Source: a virus (lineage: Duplodnaviria > Heunggongvirae > Uroviricota > Caudoviricetes). From it: DNA of 45,879 bases. The stretch lies in IMG/VR virus record IMGVR_UViG_2541047916_000008; one strand, 5' to 3'. Below are positions 1,347 to 44,377 of this stretch, piece by piece. A model generated the notes under the pieces. The model worked only from the letters and a program-made list of their open reading frames with translations, had not been told where the DNA came from and ran no database searches. Position 1 is the first letter of the stretch, and every line of letters begins with the position of its first letter. A program made the position numbers and the translations under genes.

Positions 1347-2152
1347 TTCACCTCTTGTGATGGTTTTGCTGCAAAATACTCGATACCTTTATCCCAGATA
1401 GATTTTATGGTCGACCACGTGACTGGCACTTTAATTTCAATACGTCCGCTCCCGTCACAGGTATCGCAATCATCATCGCCAAAGCATTCCAGGCAGCTTA
1501 TAAACGTAGTTTCTGAAAATTCACCGGATAGCGCCCCCTTAGCGCCGTTCTCGGCTGTTAGTCTCTTCGGCACCATAACCCAACCATCCGGAGTTACCGG
1601 AGAGTTGCCAGACAGTGCGTTCTGCAATCGTTCCAGCTTAACGTATTCCTGAACCCTGTTTCCGTCGCACGCCTGAAGCCATTGCACAGCCTTTTGCGCA
1701 TCAGTGTGAAAGGTACAAGTGCGACCGTCATCAAATTGCATTTCGTAGAGGTCAGCAACCTGTTTAAACTGCGTTTGTGGCAACTTGTAAGCCTGGCTTG
1801 CAGGTACGGCACCATAGAGCATGGCAGCTCGGCAGGCGTTCCAGCCTTCATCAAAACCGACTATGCCATTATTTAAAGATGGACGAGCATCTGGCACCAC
1901 CGGCACTGGCTTGGCTATATATAGCGGCTGAACATACCAGCCCTTTGATAACCAACTGTCAGCAATGTTTTTACTCCTAGTTATTGCCGGAATACCTAAG
2001 CCATTGTCTGAATGCAGCCATGCCACCGGATCCTCTTCCAGCGATGCCAGAGCAATTTCATAAGCACGGCGCTCAACATTGTCTCGCACGTCCATGCTGC
2101 TGATTCGTTCTTTGATTTCTTTAATCAGTTCTTTATCGGTAAATGTGGTCAT
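1343..2152 (-). CDS. Hypothetical phage protein with C-terminal Cys-rich (CxxC...CDTCDGSG) zinc-ribbon-like motif
   Basis: Track ORF, translationally coupled on both sides; no family recognised. Confidence 0.45.
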   Translation of the reverse strand: MTTFTDKELIKEIKERISSMDVRDNVERRAYEIALASLEEDPVAWLHSDNGLGIPAITRSKNIADSWLSKGWYVQPLYIAKPVPVVPDARPSLNNGIVGFDEGWNACRAAMLYGAVPASQAYKLPQTQFKQVADLYEMQFDDGRTCTFHTDAQKAVQWLQACDGNRVQEYVKLERLQNALSGNSPVTPDGWVMVPKRLTAENGAKGALSGEFSETTFISCLECFGDDDCDTCDGSGRIEIKVPVTWSTIKSIWDKGIEYFAAKPSQEVK

Positions 2153-2514
2153 TATGCTCCAGCCTCCGGTGCTTTTGGCATTACTGCCCAGTGAGTGATA
2201 TTGACGTTTTCAAGGTCCCCGACCTGAAATGTCCACTGCCATTCTCCGGTTTCTTTTTGCCCCCATGTATACCAGAGAGAACGCCAGCCAATCAGCCAGC
2301 CTTCTCCATTAGCATCAAATAACAGAATACTTTCATTCGCTGGCGGCAGTTCAGCTGACACTGGTATTACTTTGTTTTCCAGTGCTGCACATTTAGCTTC
2401 AAGCGCATCAAATTTACGCACCAGGTACTCAGCATTTGTTTCATTCACTTTCAGATCTCGTGGTACACATTTCCCGCGAAGAAACCCTTCCATTTCGAAA
2501 ACATTCATGCGCAT
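2152..2514 (-). CDS. DUF551-like phage protein (YfdS-like, 120 aa)
   Basis: Track ORF; Trp-rich C-terminal half typical of DUF551; same length and position as yfdS in the CPS-53-type module. Confidence 0.45.
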   Translation of the reverse strand: MRMNVFEMEGFLRGKCVPRDLKVNETNAEYLVRKFDALEAKCAALENKVIPVSAELPPANESILLFDANGEGWLIGWRSLWYTWGQKETGEWQWTFQVGDLENVNITHWAVMPKAPEAGA

Positions 2515-3041
2515 TTGCGTAACTCCGATAACTCGTTAAAACGTTCCATAAACATCCCATAGGCATGGCCTGGCGACAGTGGAATAACTTTGAACATCTC
2601 TGTTGCCGGGATACCTTCCAGTACAGGCCAGAAAGAGCCATCATCAAGCCCGAGATCGCGGCGTTCGGTTGCCAGCATGATGAGATCGGCATATTTCACG
2701 GGCGTGCTCATAACCGGGGGTAACCCGTATTTCTCACGGATTACGGCGTCTATTTTTTCTTCCATCCGTTTATAGTCAGGAAGAAGGCGTTTCAGTGGCG
2801 CGGGGATGTCCTGGCAATACGCTTCTGTTGCATCATGCATTAATGCTTCAAAAGCAAATTCCTGCGGTACCAGCTGGCTGCAAAGCACCGCATGTTGGGC
2901 GACGCTGTAGAAATGTGAAAGATGTCCTGCAAAGCGACAGATATTTGAAAGAGAAACCGCGATATCGTTAATAACGATGTCGTCTTTATTTATCCTGTCA
3001 TAATAAAAATGCTTCCCGGAAAAAGTTTTAATAAATGACAT
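2505..3041 (-). CDS. HD-domain phosphohydrolase (YfdR-like 5'-deoxynucleotidase family)
   Basis: Track ORF 2505..3068; start moved to second Met (MSFIKTF) which has a GGAG RBS 7 nt upstream; HD-type metal-binding motifs (H..H...HD). Confidence 0.55.
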   Translation of the reverse strand: MSFIKTFSGKHFYYDRINKDDIVINDIAVSLSNICRFAGHLSHFYSVAQHAVLCSQLVPQEFAFEALMHDATEAYCQDIPAPLKRLLPDYKRMEEKIDAVIREKYGLPPVMSTPVKYADLIMLATERRDLGLDDGSFWPVLEGIPATEMFKVIPLSPGHAYGMFMERFNELSELRKCA

Positions 3042-3168
3042 TTTGTTCTCCACGTATATGCGCTGCACCGCGCTGAATTCTGGTAAAAGGAAGCCCTCAC
3101 CATCCGGCGATTATTGAGTTAATTACGTTTCCATAAATGCCCCCGCAGGGGCATTTGCAGTAATGAAA

Positions 3169-3993
3169 TCAGGCGGTGAAAGTACCAATAAAGGTTTCTA
3201 CTTTGCTGTCTTTGAATTTCTCAACAAGCAGATCACGAAATTCGTTAGCCATTTCTTCCTGCACTGCTTCCAGCTGAATAATGCGCAGAACCAGTACAGG
3301 ACGATCGCCAGTGATAATGCTGAGGCGTAATTTAAATGGACGTTCTTTCAGACCTTCAAACGGAACGCATTTAAATTCAAATGCCACTGGCATAATATCT
3401 TTGGTCTTCGCTTCGACAGACTCCATCAGGGAGCGTTTGCCGCTGAAGTCATTATCTTCAAAATCAGCGGTCTGGTTTGCTTCAATCGTGATTTTACGGA
3501 CAGCCGCAGCCGCTTTTGTTGCCTGAATAGCGTCACCATTAGCATCAAAGCCCACAAGGTAGTCGGCCCAGTCTTCAATCCATTCTGCCAGTGACTTCTG
3601 GGAGTTACGCTCGCCATTAACAGACAACAGAGCAGAGAACGGTGCTGTCTTTTTCAGTTTGAGAGTGGCGGTGTTATCTGCGTGACCTGGTTCATCAATA
3701 GTACCCAGGTTAATCACACTGACGGCTCGCATATTATCGGCATCGATAAAGCAGCGGGTGCCTTCATCTGCAAGATCTTTAGAATAACGGGTAAAGTCAT
3801 CGATGCTGGCAGTGGAAAGCGCACCACGGAAACGGAAGCGATTTAAATTAAATTTCTCCAGATCATGAATGCGGAAATTCTCAGGCAATGCCACAGCATC
3901 GGCACCAATCTTACTGATAATTTCATTAACACCCTGAGCAGAAATAAGGGCATGGATTTGATTAATTGCGGTTGCGTCTAAGTTCTGAGACAT
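3169..3993 (-). CDS. YfdQ-like (DUF2303) phage protein, 274 aa
   Basis: Track ORF; GAGG RBS upstream of ATG; length and context (next to HD hydrolase and 120-aa genes) match the yfdP-yfdQ-yfdR-yfdS module of E. coli cryptic prophage CPS-53, from memory. Confidence 0.5.
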
Positions 3994-4058
3994 AATAAGT
4001 CCTCACTATATAAAGATATTCAGTGATGAGATAAATAATCGGTTAATTAAGAACGATA

Positions 4059-4421
4059 TTAATGACCTGCTGCGCGGAGTTTTCCGTCAGGTTCACCGGC
4101 AAGAGTCAGTAATTGTCCCTGGTCTTCCTGCAGAATAGTCAGGCGACCACCGCGATTGACATACATCGGCGTTTCGGTGGTGTCTTCTTCGGAAATTTTC
4201 CCGCGGTTAGTCGGGCGAACATATGAGAGTTTGTGTTTGATTTTCACACGGTTCTCATCAAATGGTTCGATTTCCAGGTTGAGCGAGACCTTACCTTTGG
4301 TTTTCGTGTTCATCACACCGGAAGCGACTTCACTGAGAACAGCGCCGATTTTGGTTTCAAATACGCCGCCGTCCAGCTCCCCGATAAATGCCTGCACATC
4401 AGTACTGCGTTCGCTAGCCAT
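4059..4421 (-). CDS. Hypothetical 120-aa early protein (YfdP-like); first gene of leftward operon
   Basis: Track ORF 4059..4652 trimmed to internal Met (MASERST) preceded by GAGGAG RBS; upstream part of track ORF overlaps RNA hairpins and looks non-coding. Confidence 0.5.
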   Translation of the reverse strand: MASERSTDVQAFIGELDGGVFETKIGAVLSEVASGVMNTKTKGKVSLNLEIEPFDENRVKIKHKLSYVRPTNRGKISEEDTTETPMYVNRGGRLTILQEDQGQLLTLAGEPDGKLRAAGH

Positions 4422-4469
4422 TTTGCTGCTCCTCATCATATCGACCCTGCAAGGTCGGTTGGTTTCTCC

Positions 4470-4558
4470 ACAAAACAGAGAAGAACACCTGCGGTGACTG
4501 CCGCCCGGATGGATTGGGTTATGAGCCCGTCGTCCGGTGATGCTCTTCTCTGTTTTGT
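4470..4558. repeat. Perfect 15-bp inverted repeat (acaaaacagagaaga / tcttctctgttttgt) separated by about 59 nt in the leader of the leftward operon
   Basis: Read directly from sequence; lies 50-130 nt upstream of the first early gene start. Confidence 0.6.
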
Positions 4559-4604
4559 AAAAAGAGCGGTACCAGCCGGAAGCAAGTGTACAAACTGGTA
4601 CCGC
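4557..4604 (-). terminator. Candidate intrinsic terminator in early-left leader (tL-like)
   Basis: 10-bp GC-rich stem gcggtaccag/ctggtaccgc with 19-nt loop; on the minus-strand transcript it is followed by UCUUUUU. Confidence 0.4.
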
Positions 4605-5029
4605 CAAAGCAGTGGCTGTTGTGGTGGGGTTGTCACTCAGGCGTATGGTCAACCTGACAATCCGGTGTCCTCAACGGGGAAAGAGTAACCCCGCCATACT
4701 TACCGCCGCGCCATTTCGCGGATTACCACAACGCTGAGAGCACTTAGCCAGTTACGGCACCACACTTTGTCGCGGTTCCATAAATGCCCTCATCGTTGCA
4801 CCCTGGTCTCTTCCCAGGCGTCAAACCGGATCGCCACGCTGGTTAGGCGTCTTATCAGCATCCTCATTGACTTGCACATTCCGGCTACCTGGTTTGTTTG
4901 CCCGAGCAAGGAGTGGATTGTCCCCTTTAACGTCCCCAGACCGCTAACGACGCATGTGCCATACGCCGTGTTACAACCAAATTTTGTTAGTACCTTGTTT
5001 GTAGGTCTGGAGAGAAAGATAAAATGAAG

Positions 5030-5067
5030 TTGCGCATTATGCAAGTGTTTTATTGCGAGATAAGCAA
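5030..5067. promoter_or_regulatory. OL-like operator pair (two 15-bp TTGCG-N6-GCAA sites) with presumed leftward promoter
   Basis: ttgcgcattatgcaa (5030-5044) and ttgcgagataagcaa (5053-5067), centres about 23 bp apart, just downstream of the repressor gene terminator. Confidence 0.5.
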
Positions 5068-5079
5068 TTTGGTGGGTAA

Positions 5080-5101
5080 TGAAAAGCCACCTTCTGGTGG
5101 C
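5080..5101 (-). terminator. Terminator of repressor gene
   Basis: gccacc-ttct-ggtggc hairpin; A-run on plus strand gives a U-run after the stem on the minus transcript; about 25 nt past the cI-like stop. Confidence 0.55.
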
Positions 5102-5123
5102 TAATTGATGTTGAGGTAGGGGG

Positions 5124-5816
5124 TTAATTGTGTCGCTTAAGGGTCTGTGACTGACTGATTAAGACCTTTCCAAAGACCATAAACCGGTGTTCGTTTTCGC
5201 TGGTAATTCCCCATTCGCGGTAAATCTGATTATCAGAAATTACCAGCAGTTTATCAGGTATCATTTGCAGTCGTTTGACGTAAATTTTATCATCAAAACC
5301 AAATACATATATACCATCCCCATCAAACTGATTGATACTGATATCAACGAAGATGAGATCTCCTGGCTCAATGGTTGGACACATACTGTCCCCACGAACG
5401 TTGATAACTTTAATGTGATTTGCTGGTCGTCCACCAAACATCGATACAGCATTATCAGTTCTGTATTCAATGGCATGAATCACATCAATGACATCACCGC
5501 CCTGGATAAGGCCATTTCCCGCACTGGCACTGACATCCAGCATTTCAATACGGAATACATCCTTCACCTGCGCAACATCCTCACTAATACTGTTTTTACA
5601 TACAGTATTACTTTTGAGGTCTGAGGTAAAGAGATCAGCAATATCAACACCTAAGCTCCTGGCAATATTACTCAGGGCTTGTTCAGTGAATTGTTTCTGC
5701 TTACCTGTTTCGAGGCGCGAGATATTCGCCGCATCCACTCCTATTGCTTCAGCGAGATCGGCGATTTTCATGTTCTTCGCCTGGCGAAGTTGTCTGACTC
5801 GATTTCCTATGTTCAT
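5124..5816 (-). CDS. CI-like prophage repressor (HTH_XRE N-terminal domain plus S24 LexA-like autopeptidase C-terminal domain)
   Basis: Track ORF; HTH motif IADLAEAIGVDAANISRLETG; C-terminal G-DSM...K motif of S24 peptidases; divergent from cro-like gene. Confidence 0.8.
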   Translation of the reverse strand: MNIGNRVRQLRQAKNMKIADLAEAIGVDAANISRLETGKQKQFTEQALSNIARSLGVDIADLFTSDLKSNTVCKNSISEDVAQVKDVFRIEMLDVSASAGNGLIQGGDVIDVIHAIEYRTDNAVSMFGGRPANHIKVINVRGDSMCPTIEPGDLIFVDISINQFDGDGIYVFGFDDKIYVKRLQMIPDKLLVISDNQIYREWGITSENEHRFMVFGKVLISQSQTLKRHN

Positions 5817-5836
5817 GCGTTTATTACATTTCTTTA

Positions 5837-5878
5837 TTGCGCGTTAAGCAAATCAACTTGCGCAAAATATTTGCGTGA
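5837..5878. promoter_or_regulatory. OR-like operator region between repressor and cro
   Basis: ttgcgcgttaagcaa (5837-5851) matches the TTGCG-N6-GCAA motif seen at OL; further TTGCG half-sites at 5858 and 5871. Confidence 0.45.
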
Positions 5879-5913
5879 AATAATATGCTCATCACGCAAT
5901 ATGTGGAGGTTAT

Positions 5914-6174
5914 ATGCAATCACCATTACGGAATGTGCGTAAGGCGCACGGATTTACTTTGCAGCATGTTGCTGCGGGCGTTCAGGTCAATCCAGCGACG
6001 CTGAGTCGTATTGAAAGACTGGAACAAATTCCATCTATCGATCTTGCAGAACGTCTGGCCAATTTTTTTAAGGGTGAAATCAGCGAAATGCAGATTCTTT
6101 ATCCGGCACGTTTTCAATCTAGCCAAAACCAGAATGGGTTTAAACCACAGGAACAGGAGGTAAGCCGTGGGTAA
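5914..6174 (+). CDS. Cro-like HTH regulator
   Basis: Track ORF; GGAGG RBS; HTH FTLQHVAAGVQVNPATLSRIE; divergent from repressor. Confidence 0.65.
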   Translation: MQSPLRNVRKAHGFTLQHVAAGVQVNPATLSRIERLEQIPSIDLAERLANFFKGEISEMQILYPARFQSSQNQNGFKPQEQEVSRG

Positions 6175-6718
6175 GCATCATTGGAAAGTGGAAAAACAAC
6201 CTGAGTGGTACGTGAAAGCTGTCAGAAAAACTATCGCGGCATTGCCTGGGGGTTACGCTGAAGCTGCTGACTGGCTGGATGTAACAGAGAACGCTTTATT
6301 CAACCGCCTTCGTGCAGATGGCGATCAGATTTTCCCGCTGGGATGGGCAATGGTTTTACAGCGCGCGGCTGGCACTCACTACATTGCGGATGCTGTCGCA
6401 CAGTCTGCTGGTGGGGTGTTCGTATCGCTTCCTGAAATTGAGGAAGTAGAGAACGCCGATATAAACCAGCGCCTGCTGGAAGTCATCGAACAGATCGGGA
6501 ATTACTCAAAGCAGATTCGTTCGGCAATCGAAGATGGGGTCGTGGAGCCACACGAGCAGACAGCAATTAATGATGAGTTGTATCTGTCAATTTCGAAGCT
6601 CCAGGAGCATGCAGCACTGGTCTACAAAATCTTCTGCGCTCCAGAAAAGAGTGACGCCCGCGAGTGTGCAGCTCCGGGCGTCGTGGCGTTTTGTGTCTGT
6701 GGAGAAACTAACGCATGA
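6167..6718 (+). CDS. CII-like phage regulatory protein (CP76-type family), tentative
   Basis: Track ORF immediately after cro-like gene; size (about 180 aa) and position fit enterobacterial CII/CP76-family proteins; family assignment from memory. Confidence 0.4.
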   Translation: MGKHHWKVEKQPEWYVKAVRKTIAALPGGYAEAADWLDVTENALFNRLRADGDQIFPLGWAMVLQRAAGTHYIADAVAQSAGGVFVSLPEIEEVENADINQRLLEVIEQIGNYSKQIRSAIEDGVVEPHEQTAINDELYLSISKLQEHAALVYKIFCAPEKSDARECAAPGVVAFCVCGETNA

Positions 6719-6863
6719 ACAGTTTAACGGCAAATAACCGTTTGTCGCAACAGCTGGTGGTCAGTGTCGCTGAACACCTGTTGTTACGGTATGAATGCAG
6801 ATTACCAAATCACCTGGCTGTAAGTAACCACAGAGAACTTTACCTGACTGTGGGGGGCGAGTT

Positions 6864-7043
6864 GTGCAGGAACTTAACCGCTGGTTTCGTGACGGAAGAG
6901 GGCTTTATGTCCATGTTATTCGTTGGGAGCCAGAAACACAGCGCGTTATCTATCTTCGCAAAGACTACCCGCATGAGTGCTTTAGTCCTTTGTGGAAATT
7001 CAGGCATGATTTTGTTGAGTGTGAAGGACCACCAGCACATTGA
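6864..7043 (+). CDS. Small hypothetical ORF (59 aa, GTG start) not in the 60-aa track
   Basis: Own translation of the frame offset from the track ORF: VQELNRWFRDGRGLYVHVIRWEPETQRVIYLRKDYPHECFSPLWKFRHDFVECEGPPAH; G-rich RBS-like run upstream; terminator about 90 bp downstream. Confidence 0.3.
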   Translation: MQELNRWFRDGRGLYVHVIRWEPETQRVIYLRKDYPHECFSPLWKFRHDFVECEGPPAH

Positions 7044-7128
7044 TTCTGCCATTCCGGGACGTTACACTGTTCAGGCACCTTATAAAGCGGGTGCCGGGCG
7101 TGGAAACCCGGAATTCACCAAAGCGCAC

Positions 7129-7151
7129 AACCGCGCTCTTGCGGTTTTTTT
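7129..7151 (+). terminator. Rho-independent terminator inside the apparent N-terminal extension of the Rha ORF
   Basis: aaccgc-gctctt-gcggtt hairpin followed by T7. Confidence 0.55.
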
Positions 7152-7320
7152 GTGTAATGAGCAGCATTACGCCCAAATTATGGTGGGGCGTGCAGGGCCA
7201 ACTTCGGTTGGGCCGGGTTCTTTGGTGACCGGTATTTCCACCCCTGTACGTCTCACCACCAATAAGGTCGTGGAAAGCCTTGGTGGTGAGTTATTAAAAA
7301 TCACCAAAGAGGCTGCCATC

Positions 7321-7866
7321 ATGGCTACGATCCCAACCCTCACTCAACCTGAAATTGCCATCGTTGATGGTCAGGCTGTTACTTCATCCCTGGCTGTTGC
7401 CAACTTCTTCTCCAAACGTCATGACGATGTACTGAAAAAGATCCGCACGCTTGAATGCTCTGCATCATTCACTGCCCGCAATTTTTCGGTGAGTGATTAC
7501 ACCGATTGCACAGGCCGCAAACTACCTTGCTATCAAATAACCCGCGACGGCTTTGCGTTTCTTGCTATGGGGTTCACGGGTAAACGTGCTGCCCAGTTCA
7601 AAGAGGCATACATCAATGCCTTTAACCAGATGGAGAAACAGCTTTCAAATCCCTCTGTACTGAGCGACGTTGCACATAACGCCAGCGTTCTCTATTCCTA
7701 CATTTCATCAATTCATCAGGTCTGGCTGCAGCAGCTTTATCCTATGTTGGCAAAAGCCGAATCTCCGCTGGCTGTTAGCTTGTATGACTATATTAATGAT
7801 GCTTCGGCACTGGCCTGCCTCATAAATTTGTCGCTGAACCCTTCAGAGGTAAGGGGGCGCAAATGA
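7321..7866 (+). CDS. Rha-family phage regulatory protein
   Basis: Track ORF 6715..7866 trimmed to Met at 7321 (AGAGG RBS); N-terminal Phage_pRha-like segment (VDGQAVTSSLAVANFFSKRHDDVLKKIR). Confidence 0.6.
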   Translation: MATIPTLTQPEIAIVDGQAVTSSLAVANFFSKRHDDVLKKIRTLECSASFTARNFSVSDYTDCTGRKLPCYQITRDGFAFLAMGFTGKRAAQFKEAYINAFNQMEKQLSNPSVLSDVAHNASVLYSYISSIHQVWLQQLYPMLAKAESPLAVSLYDYINDASALACLINLSLNPSEVRGRK

Positions 7867-36203: not shown

Positions 36204-38501
36204 CGCCATAATGCCGTTGAGGTGAACTGGATTGACCCGAACAACGGCTGGGAGACGGCGACAGAGCTTGTTGAAGATACGCAGGCCATTGCCCGTTACG
36301 GTCGTAATGTTACGAAGATGGATGCCTTTGGCTGTACCAGCCGGGGGCAGGCACACCGCGCCGGGCTGTGGCTGATTAAAACGGAGCTGCTGGAGACGCA
36401 GACCGTGGATTTCAGCGTCGGCGCAGAAGGGCTTCGCCATGTACCGGGCGATGTTATTGAAATCTGCGATGATGACTATGCCGGTATCAGCACCGGTGGT
36501 CGTGTGCTGGCGGTGAACAGCCAGACCCGGACGCTGACGCTCGACCGTGAAATCACGCTGCCATCCTCCGGTACCACGCTGATAAGCCTGGTTGACGGAA
36601 GTGGCAATCCGGTCAGCGTGGAGGTTCAGTCCGTCACCGACGGCGTGAAGGTAAAAGTGAGCCGTGTTCCTGAGGGTGTTGCTGAATACAGCGTATGGGG
36701 GCTGAAGCTGCCGACGCTGCGCCAGCGCCTGTTCCGCTGCGTGAGTATCCGTGAGAACGACGACGGCACGTATGCCATCACCGCCGTGCAGCATGTGCCG
36801 GAAAAAGAGGCCATCGTGGATAACGGGGCGCACTTTGACGGCGAACAGAGTGGCACGGTGAATGGTGTCACGCCGCCAGCGGTGCAGCACCTGACCGCAG
36901 AAGTCACTGCAGACAGCGGGGAATATCAGGTGCTGGCGCGATGGGACACACCGAAGGTGGTGAAGGGCGTGAGCTTCCTGCTTCGCCTGACCGTGGCAGC
37001 GGATGACGGCAGTGAGCGGCTGGTCAGCACGGCCCGGACGACGGAAACCACATACCGCTTCACGCAACTGGCGCTGGGAAACTACAGGCTGACAGTCCGG
37101 GCGGCAAATGCCTGGGGGCAGCAGGGCGATCCGGCATCGGTATCGTTCCGTATTGCCGCACCGGCAGCGCCGTCGCGGATTGAGCTGACGCCGGGCTATT
37201 TTCAGATAACCGCCACGCCCCATCTTGCCGTTTATGATCCGACGGTACAGTTTGAGTTCTGGTTCTCGGAAAAGCGGATTGCAGATATCAGGCAGGTTGA
37301 AACCACAGCACGCTATCTTGGCACGGCGCTGTACTGGATAGCCGCCAGTATCAATATCAAACCGGGCCATGATTATTATTTTTACATTCGCAGTGTGAAC
37401 ACCGTTGGCAAATCGGCATTTGTGGAGGCTGTTGGCCAGCCGAGTGATGATGCATCCGGCTATCTGGATTTTTTCAAAGGAGAGATAGGGAAAACCCATC
37501 TGGCTCAGGAGTTGTGGACGCAGATTGATAACGGTCAGCTTGCGCCTGACCTGGCTGAAATCAGGACGTCCATTACGGATGTCAGCAATGAAATCACGCA
37601 GACCGTCAATAAGAAACTGGAAGACCAGAGTGCAGCGATCCAGCAGATACAGAAGGTTCAGGTTGATACAAATAATAACCTGAACAGCATGTGGGCTGTG
37701 AAGCTGCAGCAGATGCAGGACGGACGCCTTTATATCGCGGGTATTGGTGCCGGTGTTGAGAATACCCCTGACGGTATGCAGAGTCAGGTGCTGCTGGCGG
37801 CGGACAGGATTGCGATGGTTAATCCTGCGAATGGCAACACAAAGCCGATGTTTGTTGGTCAGGGCGATCAGATATTTATGAATGAAGTGTTCCTGAAATA
37901 TCTGACGGCTCCCACCATTACCAGCGGCGGTAATCCTCCGGCATTTTCCCTGACACCGGACGGGCGGCTGACGGCGAAAAATGCCGATATCAGCGGTAAC
38001 GTGAATGCGAACTCCGGGACGCTCAACAACGTCACGATTAACGAGAACTGCCGGGTTCTGGGAAAACTGTCCGCGAACCAGATTGAAGGCGATCTCGTTA
38101 AAACAGTGGGCAAAGCTTTCCCCCGGGACTCCCGTGCACCGGAACGGTGGCCATCAGGGACCATTACCGTCAGGATTTATGACGATCAGCCGTTTGACCG
38201 GCAGATTGTTATTCCGGCGGTGGCATTCAGCGGCGCTAAACATGAGAGAGAGCATACTGATATTTACTCCTCATGCCGTCTGATAGTGCGGAAAAACGGT
38301 GCTGAAATTTATAACCGTACCGCGCTGGATAATACGCTGATTTACAGTGGCGTTATTGATATGCCTGCCGGTCACGGTCACATGACGCTGGAGTTTTCGG
38401 TGTCAGCATGGCTGGTAAATGACTGGTATCCCACAGCAAGTATCAGCGATTTGCTGGTTGTGGTGATGAAGAAAGCCACCGCAGGCATCAGTATCAGCTG
38501 A
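36204..38501 (+). pseudogene. J: Tail tip gene J, C-terminal fragment (resumes after IS)
   Basis: Track ORF 36189..38501; from codon at 36207 ([16 protein letters not shown]...) matches lambda J continuation; extreme C-terminus differs from lambda J (different receptor-binding region). Confidence 0.8.
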
Positions 38502-38568
38502 ATTTTATAACCCCAATACGGGCGTCAGAAATGACGCCTTTTTTATTGCAGAAAAGCGAGAGGTAATT

Positions 38569-39168
38569 ATGCGTAAATTATGTGCTGTTATTCTGTCCGC
38601 AGTAGTCTGGCTGGTTGCCGCTGGTACGCCAGCGAGCGCAGCAGAGCATCAGTCCACACTAAGCGCCGGGTATCTTCAGACCCATACTGATATGCCAGGC
38701 AGCGATGACCTGAAGGGCATTAACGTGAAATACCGTTATGAATTTACGGACACGCTGGGGCTGGTGACGTCATTCAGCTATGCAGGAGACAAGAATCGCC
38801 AGCTTACCCGTTACAGCGATACCCGCAGGCATGAAGATTCCGTTCGTAACCGCTGGTTCAGCGTGATGGCGGGGCCATCTGTACGCGTGAATGAATGGTT
38901 CAGTGCTTATGCGATGGCAGGTGTGGCTTACAGCCGTGTTTCGACGTTCTCCGGGGATTATCTCCGCGTAACTGACAACAAGGGGAAAACGCACGATGTG
39001 CTGACCGGAAGTGATGACGATCGCCACAGCAACACGTCTCTGGCGTGGGGAGCTGGCGTGCAGTTTAACCCGACCGAATCCGTGGCCATTGATATTGCTT
39101 ATGAAGGTTCCGGCAGTGGCGACTGGCGTACTGACGGTTTCATCGTGGGTGTCGGTTATAAATTCTGA
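38569..39168 (+). CDS. lom: Lom-like outer membrane protein (Ail/Lom/OmpX family)
   Basis: Track ORF; signal peptide; close to lambda Lom across the length. Confidence 0.8.
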
Positions 39169-39194
39169 TTAGCCAGGTAACACAGTGTTATTAC

Positions 39195-39222
39195 AGCCCG
39201 CCGGTTCAGGCGGGCTTTTTTG
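39195..39222 (+). terminator. Terminator after lom
   Basis: agcccgcc-ggttcagg-cgggct hairpin followed by T6. Confidence 0.55.
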
Positions 39223-39232
39223 TGGAGTGGAT

Positions 39233-41590
39233 ATGGCAGCAGTAAAAATCTCAGGTGTGCTGAAAGATGGTGCGGGAAAACCAATACAGAACTGCACTAT
39301 TCAACTGAAGGCAAAGCGTAACAGCACCACGGTACTGGTGAACACGGTGGCCTCTGAAAATCCGGATGAAGCCGGGCGTTACAGCATGGATGTTGAGTAT
39401 GGCCAGTACAGCGTCACCCTGCTGGTTGAAGGTTTTCCGCCTTCACATGCCGGGACCATTACCGTCTATGAAGGCTCCAGACCCGGTACGCTGAATGATT
39501 TTCTCGGTGCCATGACGGAAGATGACGTCATGCCGGAGGCATTGCGTCGTTTTGAGGCAATGGTGGAAGAAGCGGCACGCAACGCCGAAGCCGCCTCTCA
39601 GAGCGCAGCGGCGGCAAAGAAATCCGAAACGGCTGCGGCATCATCGAAGAACGCGGCGAAAACCTCAGAAACGAATGCAGCTAACAGCGCACAGGCGGCA
39701 GCGGCCTCGCAGACTGCATCGGCAAACTCCGCGACAGCAGCCAAAAAATCAGAAACCAACGCGAAAAATAGCGAGACAGCCGCAAAGACGAGCGAAACCA
39801 ACGCAAAGTCCAGCCAGACGGCAGCGAAAACCAGCGAAACGAATGCCAAAGCCAGTGAAACTGCGGCGAAAAATAGCCAGAATGCAGCAGCCGAAAGCGA
39901 GAGTGCGGCAGCTGGTTCTGCGACTTCAGCAGCTGGATCAGCAACTGCTGCGGCTAACAGCCAGAAAGCAGCGAAGACGAGCGAAACTAACGCAAAGTCC
40001 AGCCAGACGGCAGCGAAGACCAGCGAAACGAATGCCAAAGCCAGCGAAACTGCGGCGAAAAACAGTCAGGATGCAGCAGCCCAAAGCGAGAGTGCTGCAG
40101 CTGGTTCTGCAACAGCTGCAGCTAATAGCCAAAAAGCTGCAAAAACCAGTGAAACTAACGCAAAGACGAGTGAAACAAAAGCAGCAGCCAGCGAGACAGA
40201 AGCAACGTCAGCCGCAACAAGAGCAGAGAATGCAGCCCGGATTGCAGAAGATGCCGCTGATCCTGCTTCTGTCCCTCCGCTTCCTGATATCTGGCTACCC
40301 TTGAATGATTCTCTGGAAGCGATAACAGGGTATGCCCCGGGCTATAAAACAATAACCATCGGCAGTGATGAAATAACAATGCCTGTTAATGGCATATGCC
40401 AATTTAGCCGGGCTTCATCTGCAACGTATATTGATAAGTCCGGGCATATTACCGTGGCAGGGAATAACGTTCCTCGTTTTGAAAAATATGGTTTGCTGAT
40501 AGAGAATCAGCGAACAAACATGTTCGTAAATAGTTTTAATCCTGATGCCTGGAATAAAAGCGGTGGTATATCTGTAACATCATCAACAGATGAATTTGAG
40601 TTTAAATATGGACGTTTCACGGTAGGAAGCGATATAGCAGGAACGACAACAGGGAGAAATATATGCACAGTTGCTGGTAACAAAGGCATAGATGTGACTG
40701 GCGATGATCAGTACAGTAAAGGTCCGTATGTTACCGCGTCATTCAGGGTAAGAAGTGATCTCAATGTTCGCGCACGTATCCGTTTTGAACGGTATAACTC
40801 GGAAGGATACACCTTCCTTTGCGACGCCTATTTGTCATTACAGACCCATGAACTACAAATTACTGGTGGCAATGCCCAGCTATTAACAGCAAACTTTGAA
40901 ATCGATCCTGGTAGTGGATGGATATACTTTCAGGCAACACTGAAATGTCTGCCAGAATGGGGAATGGTTGGTACGCAGCTGCAAATTGCAGCCGACAGAG
41001 CTGTGGGGTCTTTTGCAACAGGTGACTGGATAGAAGTAACCACCCCGCAATTCGAGTATGGTGCTTGTGCAACTTCCTTCATCATAACGACAACAGAGCC
41101 AGCGACTCGTGCATCAGATTTATGTAAATTTCCGCTGATGAAAAATATGTATACCATGCCTTTTACGTTCATGGTGGAAGTCCATAAAAACTGGTTTATT
41201 TCTCATAATGCTGCACCGCGTGTCATTGATTCAGAAAATCACCAGTCCGGAGGCCCATTTATTATGGGGTTTGGTTCTTCTGGAACTATTAGTCAGGACG
41301 GTTATTCGTATTGCGATATAGGCGGGGCTAACCGACGTGTATATGAATCATGCGGAGTAAGGGATCTCGTTATGGGATTCAGGGTTAAGGCTGACGGCAT
41401 GACATGCTCATTTGCAAATAAGCATATAAGCACTGAAACAAAAACAGTATGGAAATATATTCGTGAAGCAGCCGTGATTCGTATCGGGGGGCAAACGACG
41501 ACAGGATTACGACACCTTAATGGTCATATAAAAAACCTCCGTTTCTGGAACAGAGCATTGTCAGATACGCAGCTTAAGGAATACGTATAA
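39233..41590 (+). CDS. stf: Side tail fibre protein (Stf-like N-terminus, Ala/Ser/Thr-rich repeat region, C-terminal lectin-like domain)
   Basis: Track ORF 39185..41590 trimmed to MAAVKISGVLKDGAGKP (matches lambda Stf N-terminus); C-terminus ends with NLRFWNRALSDTQL, a LamG/ConA-like signature from memory. Confidence 0.75.
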   Translation: MAAVKISGVLKDGAGKPIQNCTIQLKAKRNSTTVLVNTVASENPDEAGRYSMDVEYGQYSVTLLVEGFPPSHAGTITVYEGSRPGTLNDFLGAMTEDDVMPEALRRFEAMVEEAARNAEAASQSAAAAKKSETAAASSKNAAKTSETNAANSAQAAAASQTASANSATAAKKSETNAKNSETAAKTSETNAKSSQTAAKTSETNAKASETAAKNSQNAAAESESAAAGSATSAAGSATAAANSQKAAKTSETNAKSSQTAAKTSETNAKASETAAKNSQDAAAQSESAAAGSATAAANSQKAAKTSETNAKTSETKAAASETEATSAATRAENAARIAEDAADPASVPPLPDIWLPLNDSLEAITGYAPGYKTITIGSDEITMPVNGICQFSRASSATYIDKSGHITVAGNNVPRFEKYGLLIENQRTNMFVNSFNPDAWNKSGGISVTSSTDEFEFKYGRFTVGSDIAGTTTGRNICTVAGNKGIDVTGDDQYSKGPYVTASFRVRSDLNVRARIRFERYNSEGYTFLCDAYLSLQTHELQITGGNAQLLTANFEIDPGSGWIYFQATLKCLPEWGMVGTQLQIAADRAVGSFATGDWIEVTTPQFEYGACATSFIITTTEPATRASDLCKFPLMKNMYTMPFTFMVEVHKNWFISHNAAPRVIDSENHQSGGPFIMGFGSSGTISQDGYSYCDIGGANRRVYESCGVRDLVMGFRVKADGMTCSFANKHISTETKTVWKYIREAAVIRIGGQTTTGLRHLNGHIKNLRFWNRALSDTQLKEYV
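39785..40145. repeat. Tandem duplication (about 170-190 bp units, roughly 90 percent identical) inside stf
   Basis: aagacgagcgaaac(c/t)aacgcaaagtccagccagacggcagcgaa(a/g)accagcgaaacgaatgccaaagccag... occurs twice in tandem (starts about 39785 and 39974); wider low-complexity zone 39590-40230. Confidence 0.7.
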
Positions 41591-41859
41591 TGCGGGATAT
41601 AACATTACGATTCGATAACAGAGAACAGTTTAACGCAATTGTATATGACAGTGGCCTGTTCAGTCTTGAAGAAGAAAACGGGGTTCTTGTTGATGTTATT
41701 GGCTGCATTATCGATTACGAGGAGCCAGAAAACGAAAGATGTACAGGCATTGATCGCGGTGGTTTTTTCGTAAACATGAGGATTGTTGATAGCAGTAAAA
41801 ACATATCTTCTTTAATGCCTTTCATTACGACAGATCAGCATGTAAGGACATGGGCTTAA
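41590..41859 (+). CDS. Small hypothetical protein (89 aa), AT-rich
   Basis: Track ORF immediately after stf stop. Confidence 0.35.
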   Translation: MRDITLRFDNREQFNAIVYDSGLFSLEEENGVLVDVIGCIIDYEEPENERCTGIDRGGFFVNMRIVDSSKNISSLMPFITTDQHVRTWA

Positions 41860-41871
41860 TGGAGTAAGACA

Positions 41872-42555
41872 ATGGTTACAAAAACAGTAATTCCGGGAGA
41901 CATCACCACGCTAAAGGGAGATATTTCCTCAATTAACGGAAAAGTATCAACGCTTCAGACTGAGATGACCAGTGCAAAGCAGGATATCAGCTCCAGATAC
42001 ACAAAAACTGAAGTTGATAATAAGCTGAAAAACAAACTGGAAGTGAATGCTCTCGAAAGCGGTAATTATGGTGGAGATTTTTACCCGCTGACTGGCCGCG
42101 AAGCGTTTTATTTATGGGGGTTGGGCACGACTACTGCGGCGGCAAACCTTTATCTTAATCCTGACCCTGCAATTTCGTCTGTACTGCGGTCAACATCGTC
42201 TATCCGCTATAAACATTCAGTAGAGACGATAGATTCAGAGCACGCCGATGTCATTTTCAGGATGCGCCCTGTGTGGTACAGGTCGCAATGCGAAAATGAC
42301 AGGCGTGACTGGGGGTTCTACGGATTGATTGCCGAGGAAGTAGGAGAAATTGCCCCTCAGTTTGTACACTGGCGACCAGCTAACGAAGATGATGCTCCTG
42401 AAGCTATTTCCAGCAATGGCCTTGTTGCCGAAGGTGTAATGTACGAACGTCTGGTTGTTCCACTGATTCACCATATCCAGAAGCTGACAGAAAGAGTTGA
42501 TGAACTTGAGTCAGAATTAAAGTTGTTATTAACTTCCCGAAGCGATATCGGATAA
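41872..42555 (+). CDS. Tail-fibre-associated protein with C-terminal peptidase-S74-like intramolecular chaperone domain
   Basis: Track ORF; C-terminal pattern SSIRYKHSV...PVWY...GLIAEEV...Y..L.VPLIHHIQKL..R..ELE fits the S74 chaperone consensus as I recall it; N-terminal coiled-coil-like 90 aa. Confidence 0.45.
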   Translation: MVTKTVIPGDITTLKGDISSINGKVSTLQTEMTSAKQDISSRYTKTEVDNKLKNKLEVNALESGNYGGDFYPLTGREAFYLWGLGTTTAAANLYLNPDPAISSVLRSTSSIRYKHSVETIDSEHADVIFRMRPVWYRSQCENDRRDWGFYGLIAEEVGEIAPQFVHWRPANEDDAPEAISSNGLVAEGVMYERLVVPLIHHIQKLTERVDELESELKLLLTSRSDIG

Positions 42556-42558
42556 AGG

Positions 42559-42852
42559 ATGAAAATGGATATAACACCTTTCCTTCATGCACTTTGTGCT
42601 GTGGCTGCGCAGGTACTGGTTGGTCTTTTTACCGGAAACTGGGCTTACGGGGCGATAGCCGGTTGTACATTCTTCATTGCGCGGGAACACACCCAGGCAG
42701 AATATCGCTGGATTGAAATGTTCGGGCATGGCAAGCGTATGAATATGCCGTGGTGGGGCGGTTTTGATCCACGTGCATGGGATGTGGCAAGCCTGATGGA
42801 TTTTGCTGTGCCGGTGGTGGCGTGTCTGCTGATCTGGATGTTGATCCGTTAA
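42559..42852 (+). CDS. Small membrane protein (two predicted TM helices), unknown function
   Basis: Track ORF; hydrophobic segments at both ends. Confidence 0.4.
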   Translation: MKMDITPFLHALCAVAAQVLVGLFTGNWAYGAIAGCTFFIAREHTQAEYRWIEMFGHGKRMNMPWWGGFDPRAWDVASLMDFAVPVVACLLIWMLIR

Positions 42853-42867
42853 ATATAAAAAGTAAAA

Positions 42868-42902
42868 AGCCGCAGTAACTTGTCATGATAGGATACTGCG
42901 GC
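42868..42902 (-). terminator. Terminator of dinI-like gene (may act bidirectionally)
   Basis: agccgcagta ... tactgcggct stem; A-rich tract on plus strand gives a U-run after the hairpin on the minus transcript. Confidence 0.45.
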
Positions 42903-42969
42903 TGGCTGGTTAACTTTCGATAGTGCGAGTATTGAATGATTTCCAGCCGTTACCGATTTTACGTGTTAA

Positions 42970-43218
42970 TTAGTGAACAAACCACTCGTCAGCAGACTCC
43001 CAGGTATCTTTCAGAGTTTCCTGAACAAAAGTTTTAGCTGAATCTTTATCGGCGGTGCGCGTAACAGAAAGGCCATCGTTGCTGGTGGCTTTTACGATCA
43101 CCTCTACATCGTCATAACGTTTACTGATGCGTCGGGTTAATTCTTCCTTTAACGCATCCACAGCACCGGTTGGCATTTTAGTCATTTTTTCTTTGGCTAT
43201 GCAGATTTCAATACGCAT
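42970..43218 (-). CDS. DinI-family DNA-damage-inducible protein
   Basis: Track ORF, 82 aa; MRIEI.IAK...P.GA.DAL..EL..RI......E.........LSV......D......[12 protein letters not shown] matches DinI. Confidence 0.7.
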
Positions 43219-43231
43219 AAAAGTCCCTCTA

Positions 43232-43279
43232 TACTGTGTTTGTATACAGTGTTATTTTTGACTGTATGGATAAACAGTG
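43232..43279. promoter_or_regulatory. Two tandem LexA (SOS) boxes upstream of dinI-like gene
   Basis: tACTGTgtttgtatACAGtg (43232-43251) and gACTGTatggataaACAGtg (43260-43279); both CTGT-N8-ACAG. Confidence 0.65.
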
Positions 43280-44377
43280 TCAAGAGGTCTTATTTCTGCT
43301 CTTTTGGAGCTCTTCAAAACGATTATGTAAAGATTTCGGATACAGTTCGGTATATACCTGCCATAGCACGTTTAATGAACGATGCCCTGTAACTTGGGCG
43401 ACTTCCTCAATACTAAAACCAGCCTCAAATAAGCGACTTGCCCCTTCTCTACGCAAATCATGGTATCGCAGATCTTTAATACCTAATTTGCTTCTTACCC
43501 TCTGAAATCCCGCAGTAACAGAAGTGCTGTTATATGGAAAAATGAATTCCGATTTTTGGGGCTGTCGTTGGACGATATCCCAGGCTTCCCCAAGCAAGGC
43601 TACTTTCATGTGGTTGCCTTCCTTTTTGCGTGGATCTTTCCTGTCTCTTACGAGTATAGATTTTTGTTCCTGGTCGAGATCTTCCCATCGTAACCGGCAT
43701 ACTTCTCCGATTCGCATACAGGACCACACAGAAAATTTGAGGATATCAACGAACGGAATTTTTGAGCATTTATGTGTAGATCGTTGTTGAAGACCTTCAA
43801 TGAGCATGTCCAGTTCATCAGATGCCGGTCTACGATTACGACGGTTTGATTTACCAATCAAACCAAGTTTAAGTAGATATGGACGAGCACTTTTCGCCGG
43901 GTTTGATGTGTAATTAATTCCGTATACAGGTTTGGCCGCATCCAGAACACTGCCAAGATAACTAACATCGTGGCTGACTGTTGCTGGACCTGCACCAGCG
44001 TTGTTTCTTAGCCTACAATGTTCAATTACGTCATTTTCTGTCAGTTCGGATAGTTTGATCGCGGAGATGTCACTATCCATAAGCAGTTCCAGCACATATC
44101 TTTTAGTACGACCTGCTTTACCTCCGGCATTTGGGTCATTTAAATATTTGTGTAGTAAGTCACGGACTGTAAGTCCGTCAACTGCATTTGATGATGGAAT
44201 GCCATATAGATCTAATTCCATCACTTTCTGTGTACCCCATGTTTTGGCATGGGCATGTTTAGGGAATGTTTTGCTTTCCCTGTAAGTGATAACACCTTTT
44301 TCTTTGATAATCACATTACAGCGATAGCGTGGTGTGCCATCGGATTTTAGTCGTTTCTCTATGTTATAGTACGCCAT
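43280..44377 (-). CDS. Tyrosine recombinase (phage integrase), divergent from dusA
   Basis: Track ORF, 365 aa; C-terminal R...HDLR...Y catalytic pattern (RYHDLRREGASR ... LWQVYTELY); AT-rich. Confidence 0.8.
   Translation of the reverse strand: MAYYNIEKRLKSDGTPRYRCNVIIKEKGVITYRESKTFPKHAHAKTWGTQKVMELDLYGIPSSNAVDGLTVRDLLHKYLNDPNAGGKAGRTKRYVLELLMDSDISAIKLSELTENDVIEHCRLRNNAGAGPATVSHDVSYLGSVLDAAKPVYGINYTSNPAKSARPYLLKLGLIGKSNRRNRRPASDELDMLIEGLQQRSTHKCSKIPFVDILKFSVWSCMRIGEVCRLRWEDLDQEQKSILVRDRKDPRKKEGNHMKVALLGEAWDIVQRQPQKSEFIFPYNSTSVTAGFQRVRSKLGIKDLRYHDLRREGASRLFEAGFSIEEVAQVTGHRSLNVLWQVYTELYPKSLHNRFEELQKSRNKTS

Follow-up and report, generated by a model that had tools for sequence, protein, structure and literature searches.

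We propose here that the S74-domain protein encoded behind the side tail fibre gene of a lambdoid prophage is probably an intact, self-contained and optional accessory mini tail fibre, and neither a leftover of a longer gene nor a chaperone of the side tail fibre Stf. The prophage is integrated at dusA and is about identical to phage PhiR55_1; the window, i.e. the whole stretch of DNA analysed, comprises 45,879 nucleotides. Our reading of the protein, termed ORF227, builds on its domain identity, its catalytic motif and the purifying selection acting on it, together with the boundaries of the cassette, the polymorphism of the slot and the homology to the tip of a long fibre. From these we infer that ORF227 trimerises, is cleaved, enters the virion at a docking partner and binds a receptor. 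A preliminary description of the locus was right to involve a second fibre. Overall, the locus reflects ordinary phage mosaicism and is not a new kind of system. The ORF227 gene is well conserved but fairly ordinary, and its swappable slot is located in a common E. coli prophage.

Results

Three tightly packed ORFs lie 3' of Stf (39233..41590, plus strand; 785 aa from the ATG at 39233), exactly where the preliminary description had placed them. All are on the plus strand: ORF89 (41590-41859), a small acidic protein of 89 aa, ORF227 (41872-42555), the candidate mini-fibre of 227 aa and a type A allele, and ORF97 (42559-42852), a small membrane protein of 97 aa. The ATG of ORF89 overlaps the Stf stop codon as ATGA, so that the two are translationally coupled. 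ORF227 has its own Shine-Dalgarno sequence (GGAG, 8 nt upstream) and ATG, and for ORF97 a start at 42565 (95 aa) is favoured by Shine-Dalgarno spacing and by PGAP. Between ORF97 and the convergent dinI the sequence itself shows a 9-bp inverted repeat, GCCGCAGTA...TACTGCGGC (42869..42902, assigned to no strand), with a T-run after it on the minus strand. It is therefore likely the dinI terminator and the 3' boundary of the fibre operon; the terminator scan missed it because its loop is longer than 8 nt. Compared to the tail genes (GC 0.536), ORF89 (0.393) and ORF227 (0.453) are indeed AT-rich as had been described, but ORF97 (0.514) is not, and the low-GC block already starts within Stf, at about 40300, the C-terminal half of Stf having a GC content of 0.432. 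The absence of a tfa gene had been noted correctly, since none of the three ORFs gave a tail-fibre-assembly match in Pfam, NCBIfam or PHROG.

Stf residues are numbered here along the 801-aa mechanical ORF that begins with the GTG at 39185. The protein consists of a PF08400 N-terminal anchor, Ala-rich helical repeats and a lectin-like C-terminal half. Its framework, residues 352-445 and 765-801, is conserved, and residues 450-610 and 680-760 are hypervariable; over the C-terminal 420 aa, alleles share only 34-51% identity. Residues 438-643 match NF048003 GTA_spike_fiber, and Stf also matches the RcGTA head spike fibre 6tb9 (E 5.8e-4). Neither a C-terminal S74 domain in Stf nor a Tfa homologue downstream of it was found with Pfam and NCBIfam. 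ORF89, the next gene, is a member of phrog_1361 ("unknown function") and has no match to a Tfa family profile in Pfam, NCBIfam or annotated PHROGs. Its family falls into two classes, of 89 aa and of 92-93 aa, which are about 31% identical to one another. The gene is kept whether the following slot is filled or empty, and members of the 93-aa class remain 87-90% identical where the Stf tip has diverged to 40-70%. We infer that ORF89 belongs functionally with Stf, either as an assembly factor or as a distal component or subunit.

The S74 domain that had been suspected in the 227-aa protein, outside a long fibre, is genuine according to Pfam, fold and cleavage motif. The profile search gave a significant match of residues 109-165 to PF13884 (26.8 bits, E 6.6e-6; gathering cutoff 22 bits). 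In the AF2 monomer model residues 110-227 reach a pLDDT above 90, and residues 60-76 are of low confidence. The best Foldseek match in the PDB is the MyRF ICA (7dc3, E 4e-5), followed by the intramolecular chaperones (IMCs) of phi29 gp12 (3gud) and endoNF (3gw6) at E values of about 0.1-0.35, and almost all of the 144 BFVD matches at E <= 1e-3 are to the C-termini of long fibres. T108 and K114 do not vary among 81 homologues, and at least 90% of these also keep S109. The motif T108-S109-x4-K114 has the same spacing as the cleavage motif T1263-S1264...K1269 of T5 pb1 (PMC4690869), and its sequence predicts autocleavage at T108|S109 with K114. The domain is not the C-terminus of a long fibre or spike: ORF227 has 227 aa, about 108 of them before the cleavage site, and typical S74 carriers in BFVD have 400-1300 aa.

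The S74 intramolecular chaperone (residues 109-227) is preceded by a conserved N-terminal anchor of about 20 residues (MVTKTVIPGDITTLKGD), by a coiled coil of 3-4 heptads (11-39) with Ile, Leu or Val in 3-4 spacing at positions 11, 14, 18, 21, 25, 28, 32 and 39, and by a fibre-tip segment (43-108). Alleles of 227, 234 and 241 aa differ by exact 7-aa insertions. PF08400 or another recognised virion-attachment domain was not found in ORF227 with Pfam. On the phrog_3299 profile (1385 columns) ORF227 aligns at columns 1147-1383, and over its residues 43-217 it shares 58% identity with the extreme C-terminus (747-927, the last 181 residues) of a 931-aa fibre of an E. coli phage-plasmid. Hence, ORF227 is best read as anchor, trimeric coiled coil, tip and cis-acting IMC. 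The gene is intact in 80 of 80 related IMG/VR loci (227-241 aa), and its 51 DNA alleles have a median dN/dS of 0.17; the tip is conserved and not diversified (dN/dS 0.15). All 109 homologues detected are between 124 and 397 aa long, the full-length ones 221-269 aa.

Among 5,426 E. coli genomes, the slot between the ~90-aa gene and ORF97 exists in three states. It is empty in about 1,128 genomes, as it is in phage mEp460, where Stf and the ~90-aa gene likewise occur without an S74 gene; it holds type A in about 740 (746 genomes carry it at >=90% identity) and a 346-aa type B protein in about 470. Type B (Tritos gp21) has its own body of about 190 aa, which is beta-rich and different from that of type A, and its own S74 domain (52.8 bits). 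Common to all slot alleles are the N-terminal ~15-20 residues, which read MxTxTVIPxDIxTLK in types A and B, and the first four residues follow the class of the upstream ORF89. In the sister phage PhiR47_1, Stf (98.5%) and ORF89 (96.6%) are nearly the same, yet the slot contains a type B body. DNA homology ends 44 nt into ORF227 and returns at the stop codon, so that the swapped cassette body corresponds to 41916..42555 (plus strand) of the window. The type B allele of PhiR47_1 is frameshifted (294 + 37 aa).

Outside the lambdoid phages, a separate gene of about 225 aa, 55-61% identical to ORF227, is present in the T1-like Drexlerviridae, where the order fibre-tip, 92 aa, 225 aa is conserved. 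Near-full-length matches in a tblastn search of 50,697 phage genomes are confined, among the matches listed, to lambdoid and Drexlerviridae phages; T5-like phages, which encode LtfB, do not appear among the listed matches and tallies of this search, in which LtfB itself was not directly compared. Stf is 38% identical to the lateral tail fibre of the Drexlerviridae phage KarlJaspers. The only proteome found for a phage with an ORF227 homologue, that of swan01, is too shallow to reveal even the main fibre.

ORF97, described before as a two-TM protein, does have two strong hydrophobic segments, but a weaker one lies between them and AF2 places three helices (6-25, 28-54 and 76-96). Its 464 relatives share an almost invariant 35-residue loop, AREHTQAEYRWI..FG.GKR.NMPWWGGFD.RAWD, and ORF97 matches nothing in Pfam or NCBIfam. 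The family is found in 1,918 of the 5,426 E. coli genomes and is 57-95% identical across gamma- and beta-proteobacteria; in other Proteobacteria it is chromosomal, and its alphaproteobacterial members sit among housekeeping genes such as those for NAD-dependent DNA ligase and pirin. An S74 gene lies directly upstream in only 5 of 59 diverse loci. An Aeromonas myophage encodes an ORF97 homologue that overlaps with the stop codon of an S74 fibre gene. A promoter scan detected no promoter of its own. ORF97 is an independent mosaic unit, a conserved and unrelated cargo gene for a membrane protein. The family is uncharacterised and worth attention in its own right.

Discussion

If ORF227 is an accessory mini tail fibre, three chains would associate via the C-terminal S74 chaperone (109-227), which would nucleate folding of the short beta-structured tip (about 43-108) and of an N-terminal three-stranded coiled coil (11-53). 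The chaperone would then remove itself by a cut of the T108-S109 bond mediated by Ser109 and Lys114, as in T5 pb1 and endosialidase, leaving a trimer of about 108 residues per chain. The conserved N-terminal ~20 residues might dock non-covalently to the virion, most plausibly at the conserved framework of Stf, and the outcome would be a branched fibre comparable to LtfA/LtfB of the T5-like phage DT57C.

Several observations speak against a fibre. The mature part would be tiny (~108 aa), and a conserved tip is unusual for a host-range determinant. A recognised virion-attachment domain is lacking, and in the BASEL collection the KarlJaspers homologue is labelled "putative lateral tail fiber chaperone". 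Furthermore, the common N-terminus could in part consist of recombination linkers rather than a docking site, as its first four residues go with the ORF89 class.

Some of these observations would suit a fibritin-like role, in which a coiled-coil trimer serves as an assembly or sensor whisker that positions or retracts Stf or helps to attach it, without binding a receptor. T4 fibritin has a trimeric coiled coil that ends in a trimerisation unit at the C-terminus, and ORF227 resembles it in architecture; the undiversified tip of ORF227 and the varying number of heptads, suggestive of a spacer, point in the same direction. LtfB of DT57C appears folded back onto the tail tip, and a sensor role has been proposed for it (PMC10713586). 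However, ORF227 has no sequence similarity to fibritin, the type B protein has a large, variable body of the kind typically seen in receptor-binding domains, and the segment shared with the 931-aa fibre is its distal-most tip, the usual place of receptor binding. We therefore consider a fibritin-like role unlikely.

It had also been suggested that the protein is a trans-acting fibre chaperone, which would stay in the cell and use its S74 domain or coiled coil to aid trimerisation or folding of Stf. Besides the BASEL label and the very small mature part, this would explain why Stf manages without a C-terminal S74 domain and without Tfa, why ORF227 always shares an operon with Stf and why its conservation (88-100%) far exceeds that of the Stf C-terminus (34-100%). 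Yet S74 chaperones are described as intramolecular in action, and T108, S109 and K114, required only for release in cis, are conserved. In the long fibre, the homologue of residues 43-108 is the substrate tip in front of the IMC. Moreover, Stf and the ~90-aa gene do without an S74 gene in mEp460 and the roughly 1,128 genomes with an empty slot, and the slot can instead hold the 346-aa protein with a beta-rich body and IMC of its own. An action on Stf in trans is thus distinctly unlikely.

We regard as quite improbable a superinfection-exclusion cassette, as had further been suggested, or a lysogenic-conversion cassette, in which ORF97, possibly with its neighbours, would alter the envelope and keep related phages from adsorbing to the lysogen or the lysing cell. 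The end of the fibre operon beside the attachment site is a typical moron position, and ORF97 is a small, very widespread membrane protein whose Aeromonas homologue overlaps an S74 fibre gene. But PADLOC found no defence system, Pfam and NCBIfam were equally without a match and a promoter was not detected; the conservation of ORF97 across genera and its housekeeping neighbours are unlike fast-evolving exclusion proteins, its family rarely follows an S74 gene, and such a role would leave ORF227 and ORF89 unexplained. The last proposal, a remnant of a displaced second fibre, taken here as a long fibre in decay whose pieces or debris would be the three ORFs, is very improbable and largely refuted: ORF227 does look like a cut-off end of a long fibre and aligns near the end of phrog_3299, the region is low in GC and one relative has a tfa fragment and pinQ 3' of ORF97, but the gene is intact in all related loci compared and under purifying selection, has its own start and an N-terminus common to type B and Drexlerviridae, stands as a separate gene in the latter, has only short homologues, is frequent in E. 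coli, and in relatives the ORFs do not appear as pieces of one disrupted gene.

Returning to the accessory mini-fibre, it is conceivable, though we advance this only tentatively, that the side fibres of many lambdoid prophages and T1-like phages are branched organelles with two specificities. With its conserved N-terminal peptide of ~20 residues, the S74-released 108-residue mini-fibre would dock, perhaps by way of the ~90-aa protein, on the conserved framework of Stf (352-445 or 765-801), and the three-state slot would tune adsorption independently of the hypervariable lectin domain of Stf. If ORF227 is indeed a mini-fibre, about 14% of complete E. coli genomes would carry, for the side fibres of lambdoid phages, an additional exchangeable determinant of adsorption, to which type B adds roughly 9-13%. 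At present, genes of the slot bear no label beyond "tail fiber domain-containing protein" or "chaperone". This would matter for host-range prediction of prophages and for lambda-based delivery particles, in which only Stf and gpJ are swapped now, and a very small natural substrate of about 108 residues would become available for studies of S74 chaperone-assisted trimer folding.

The known systems place ORF227 among familiar elements. With known S74/IMC carriers it shares the Pfam family, the fold, the T-S-x4-K motif, the terminal coiled-coil helix and an IMC directly after a short beta-structured tip. Those carriers, in contrast, have about 850-1400 aa and large receptor-binding or enzymatic bodies, while the mature part of ORF227 is predicted at ~108 aa and its cleavage is a prediction as well. 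SSU5-like E. coli phage-plasmids encode a 931-aa tail fibre (NZ_LR882992, WP_251121189) that has tip and IMC in common with ORF227. It is a long fibre of the canonical kind and contains GNAATATKLQTAR-type repeats; in place of its long body, ORF227 has a 42-aa anchor and coiled coil. ORF89 sits, like lambda Tfa and Caudo_TAP, directly after Stf and is translationally coupled, but is half the size and without sequence similarity to any Tfa family. Gene order is also shared with the Drexlerviridae fibre locus (KarlJaspers Bas06 gp37-gp36-gp35; swan01 SWAN_00002-4), which has the same three genes, the ATGA overlap of fibre and small ORF, and identities of 38% (fibre C-half), 31% (~90-aa protein) and 61% (S74 protein); unlike here, the fibre has another N-terminal anchor, no ORF97 homologue follows and the phages are virulent. 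Lateral fibres that are branched or made of two parts, each part with an IMC of its own, have precedent in DT57C LtfA/LtfB and in the T5-like BASEL phage IrisVonRoten, with a galectin-like-domain proximal and an IMC-bearing distal fibre (PMC4728585, PMC10713586, PMC11990801). As in the LtfA/LtfB type, the first fibre ends in lectin-like domains, and the second, ORF227, is encoded next to it, lacks a tail-attachment domain, has its own IMC and is dispensable or variable. ORF227 differs in showing no detectable sequence homology to LtfB among the matches listed in the tblastn search, in its host phages, which are lambdoid and T1-like siphoviruses, in being far shorter and in the conserved ~90-aa gene between the two fibre genes, and its attachment to the first fibre is putative.

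Results

The side tail fibre gene stf (39233-41590; 785 aa, or 801 aa counted from an upstream GTG) of the lambdoid prophage in the window follows J, which ends at 38501, and lom (38569-39168). Three ORFs lie behind it where the preliminary description had placed them, ORF89 (41590-41859), ORF227 (41872-42555) and ORF97 (42559-42852), followed on the minus strand by dinI (42970-43218) and the integrase gene (43280-44377), and then by dusA (from 44466), the integration site of the prophage. Stf and the three ORFs are closely packed in one operon: the stf stop overlaps the ORF89 ATG as ATGA, ORF89 and ORF227 are 12 nt apart with a GGAG 8 nt 5' of the ORF227 ATG, and only 3 nt separate ORF227 from ORF97. 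The cluster had been called AT-rich, which holds for ORF89 and ORF227 (GC content 0.393 and 0.453, compared to 0.536 in the tail genes) but not for ORF97 (0.514), and the low-GC block starts already within stf, near 40300. A gene for a tail fibre assembly protein (Tfa) is indeed absent from its expected place, as no Tfa homologue was found for the three ORFs. Over the compared fibre-to-dinI segment (41400-43000), the window shares 99.9% identity with Escherichia phage PhiR55_1 (PV340571), which comes from the ECOR collection, can be induced and forms plaques. PhiR55.1 reportedly stems from the work of Brenes and Laub in 2025. A promoter and terminator scan of 38400-43400 gave counts not above those of shuffled sequence and none within the cluster. 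A strong terminator-like hairpin is located between lom and stf (39195-39216; 8 bp, 7 of them GC, followed by TTTTTT). It coincides with the first codons of the 801-aa ORF counted from the GTG and thereby supports the ATG at 39233 as true Stf start. It also implies that the fibre operon is reached by antiterminated read-through. The spacer between ORF97 and dinI contains a very small RefSeq pseudogene annotation, a 'capsid protein' fragment (42893-42973), that overlaps the region of the dinI terminator hairpin and looks like an annotation artefact.

The C-terminus of ORF227 had been likened to the S74 intramolecular chaperone (IMC) domain, and Pfam, fold and motif all identify this domain as real. 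PF13884 matches residues 109-165 with 26.8 bits (gathering score 22), and residues 110-227 reach pLDDT values >90 in an AlphaFold2 model built from 81 homologues. The best fold matches in the PDB, led by the MyRF ICA domain (7dc3, E 4e-5), include the IMCs of phi29 gp12 (3gud) and K1F endosialidase (3gw6). Among predicted viral structures the model has 144 matches (E <= 1e-3), nearly all of them to the C-termini of fibre or spike proteins that are 400-1300 aa long. The ORF227 alignment shows no variation at R106, T108 and K114, and conservation of 90% or more at S107, S109 and S110. T5 pb1 has a scissile Thr1263-Ser1264 pair and an activating Lys1269 (PMC4690869), and the motif T108-S109-x4-K114 reproduces both. 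Therefore, cleavage of ORF227 is predicted and would leave a mature chain of residues 1-108. A PDB profile match of the ORF227 family (A1) to Bdellovibrio fibre repeats came only via inserted columns from distant homologues and is not relevant to ORF227 itself.

The N-terminal part carries Ile, Leu, Val or Met at positions 11, 14, 18, 21, 25, 28, 32 and 39, a 3-4 heptad pattern spanning residues 11-39, and the length steps between alleles (227, 234 and 241 aa) are whole heptads, such as a VSKAKED insertion. A 931-aa tail fibre of SSU5-like E. coli phage-plasmids has 58% identity to residues 43-217 over its residues 747-927, where this canonical long fibre has its distal tip and cis IMC. ORF227 thus consists of a 42-residue anchor and coiled coil, joined to a fibre tip with its own chaperone. 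It presumably attaches and trimerises.

The position of ORF227 is polymorphic. In the sister phage PhiR47_1, whose Stf and ORF89 are 98.5% and 96.6% identical to those of the window, it is occupied by a frameshift-split gene with 84% identity to Tritos gp21 (346 aa); DNA homology stops 44 nt into ORF227 (41915) and restarts exactly at the stop codon (42556). Tritos gp21 and ORF227 have only the N-terminus in common (MATSTVIPDDIKTLKSDVS vs MVTKTVIPGDITTLKGDIS), and gp21 continues with a different body (~190 residues) and has a separate, strongly matching S74 domain at residues 227-278 (52.8 bits). Phage mEp460 encodes Stf, the 92-aa gene and an ORF97 homologue with nothing between the last two. 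Among complete E. coli genomes, at a coverage of at least 80% for each state, the slot is empty in ~1,128, contains the ORF227 allele in ~740 and the Tritos-type allele in ~470. The frameshift in PhiR47_1 (locus 3973-5013; 294 + 37 aa) lies within the S74 domain, and since this phage forms plaques, an intact copy is dispensable for growth on the laboratory host. In the lambda recombinant Lambda_4C10 (1139-3555, 4399-7848), an IS-like insertion with three genes annotated 'mobile element protein' separates the fibre gene from the 92-aa gene, and the manganese transporter genes sitABCD are found just 3' of the ORF97 homologue. No paper describing this slot or a lambdoid S74 mini-fibre was found in the literature.

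Stf has a match to the GTA head-spike-fibre domain in its C-terminal half (NF048003 at residues 438-643; PDB 6tb9, E 5.8e-4). Among 14 representatives with <75% identity to one another, residues 352-445 and 765-801 are conserved and residues 450-610 and 680-760 hypervariable; therefore Stf, and not ORF227, is the diversifying element. Its shaft (39600-40250) consists of Ala/Ser/Thr/Lys-rich repeats (AAKTSETNAK...) that cause the extreme AT skew of this stretch (0.52) and, in the other frames, long spurious ORFs. In strain CU39ES-1 the gene is intact but was broken up by PGAP into two 'pseudogene' fragments. ORF89 falls into phrog_1361, a family annotated as 'unknown function', and very few relatives of it can be detected. 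A word-index search returned 4 fragments, and phmmer in a full scan of 1.8 billion representatives gave 6 matches: two same-locus fragments, one frameshifted read-through of the locus, one true 88-aa homologue, and a cadherin-like and an archaeal surface repeat protein that were considered compositional or weak. The protein occurs in size classes of 89 aa and 92-93 aa. Identity within the latter class is 87-90% even where Stf tips are down to 40-70%, hence there is no tight co-variation and ORF89 was rejected as a co-varying Tfa analogue. Its presence with or without an S74 gene indicates that it goes with Stf, for which it may serve as assembly factor, adaptor or distal subunit.

ORF97 represents a very conserved family of ~97-aa membrane proteins in phages of Enterobacteria, Aeromonas and Comamonas that has no Pfam entry. 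Its 464 relatives of 95-100 aa come from Escherichia, Salmonella, Leclercia, Aeromonas and Comamonas, and distant ones from Desulfovibrio and alphaproteobacteria; in the alphaproteobacteria they are chromosomal and adjoin, for example, NAD-dependent DNA ligase or pirin. The central loop is almost invariant, and D4, H10, Q18, R42, E43, Q46, E48, Y49, R50, W51, R60, P64, W66, G67, G68, F69, W74, D81 and P85 are invariant in the family. The model has three helices (pLDDT 90), and its fold search gave no informative matches. Shine-Dalgarno spacing (from AGGA it is 0-1 nt to the first ATG and 6-7 nt to the second), RefSeq (PGAP) annotation and most homologues favour the second Met (42565, 95 aa) as start. 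The ORF opens with MKM (42559-42567), like the dual-start motif of lambda S. A lambda S-like holin, considered for this motif and the three helices, was rejected because of the highly conserved loop, the chromosomal distribution and the second-Met starts of most homologues. In many lambda-like phages this is the only gene in common with the window, and homology breaks off at the ORF227 stop; ORF97 is a separate mosaic unit, found in 1,918 E. coli genomes. An Aeromonas media P2/HP1-like myophage (3107-6309) has a 964-aa fibre (PF12571 and S74) and an ORF97-family gene whose start overlaps the fibre stop codon, a juxtaposition like that in the window, although the phage type is unrelated. A general tie of ORF97 to S74 fibres was rejected, because a survey of 67 GTDB loci found S74 in only 5 of the 59 ORFs upstream and placed many loci in chromosomal housekeeping regions. 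S74 was scored here by Pfam; a narrow custom HMM that missed even the Aeromonas fibre was dropped.

Discussion

The first three genes of this arrangement recur in the same order in T1-like Drexlerviridae, such as KarlJaspers (Bas06) and swan01; ORF97 is not part of that module. The C-terminal ~540 residues of their lateral tail fibre are 38% identical to Stf, with a weak Laminin_G_3 match in the counterpart of the Stf C-terminal half, a 92-aa gene, again with the ATGA overlap, has 31% identity to ORF89, and a ~225-aa S74 protein has 61% identity to ORF227. Virion proteomics of swan01 detected just 5 proteins. The BASEL authors labelled the S74 gene 'putative lateral tail fiber chaperone', in line with the earlier proposal that ORF227 acts as a chaperone in trans. 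However, loci with Stf and the 92-aa gene can do without ORF227, or carry in its stead a protein with a body and an IMC of its own, which makes an obligatory Stf chaperone unlikely; ORF227 is probably no trans-acting chaperone. The preliminary description also considered the remnant of a displaced second fibre. A second fibre does seem to be involved, but it is intact and optional. The 109 homologues found in a set of 5.8 billion proteins are without exception short, at 124-397 aa, with 221-269 aa for full-length relatives, and the gene is intact in 80 of 80 IMG/VR prophage loci, with 88-100% identity to the window copy and 227-241 aa where the contig spans the whole gene. The median pairwise dN/dS of 51 distinct DNA alleles is 0.17 (N-terminus 0.31, middle 0.15, IMC 0.12), and the gene body is found at >=90% identity in 746 of 5,426 complete E. 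coli genomes. A superinfection-exclusion cassette, the third proposal, is probably not encoded by ORF227 either, and ORF97 has no defence-family match.

The ORF227 family is common and already annotated, and ORF227 is best read as an intact accessory fibre. Among known architectures, the branched or two-part lateral fibres of T5-like phages come nearest. One is LtfA/LtfB of DT57C, although no sequence homology of ORF227 to LtfB was found. A similar arrangement exists in the T5-like IrisVonRoten, in which a proximal fibre with a galectin-like end is combined with a distal, IMC-bearing fibre.
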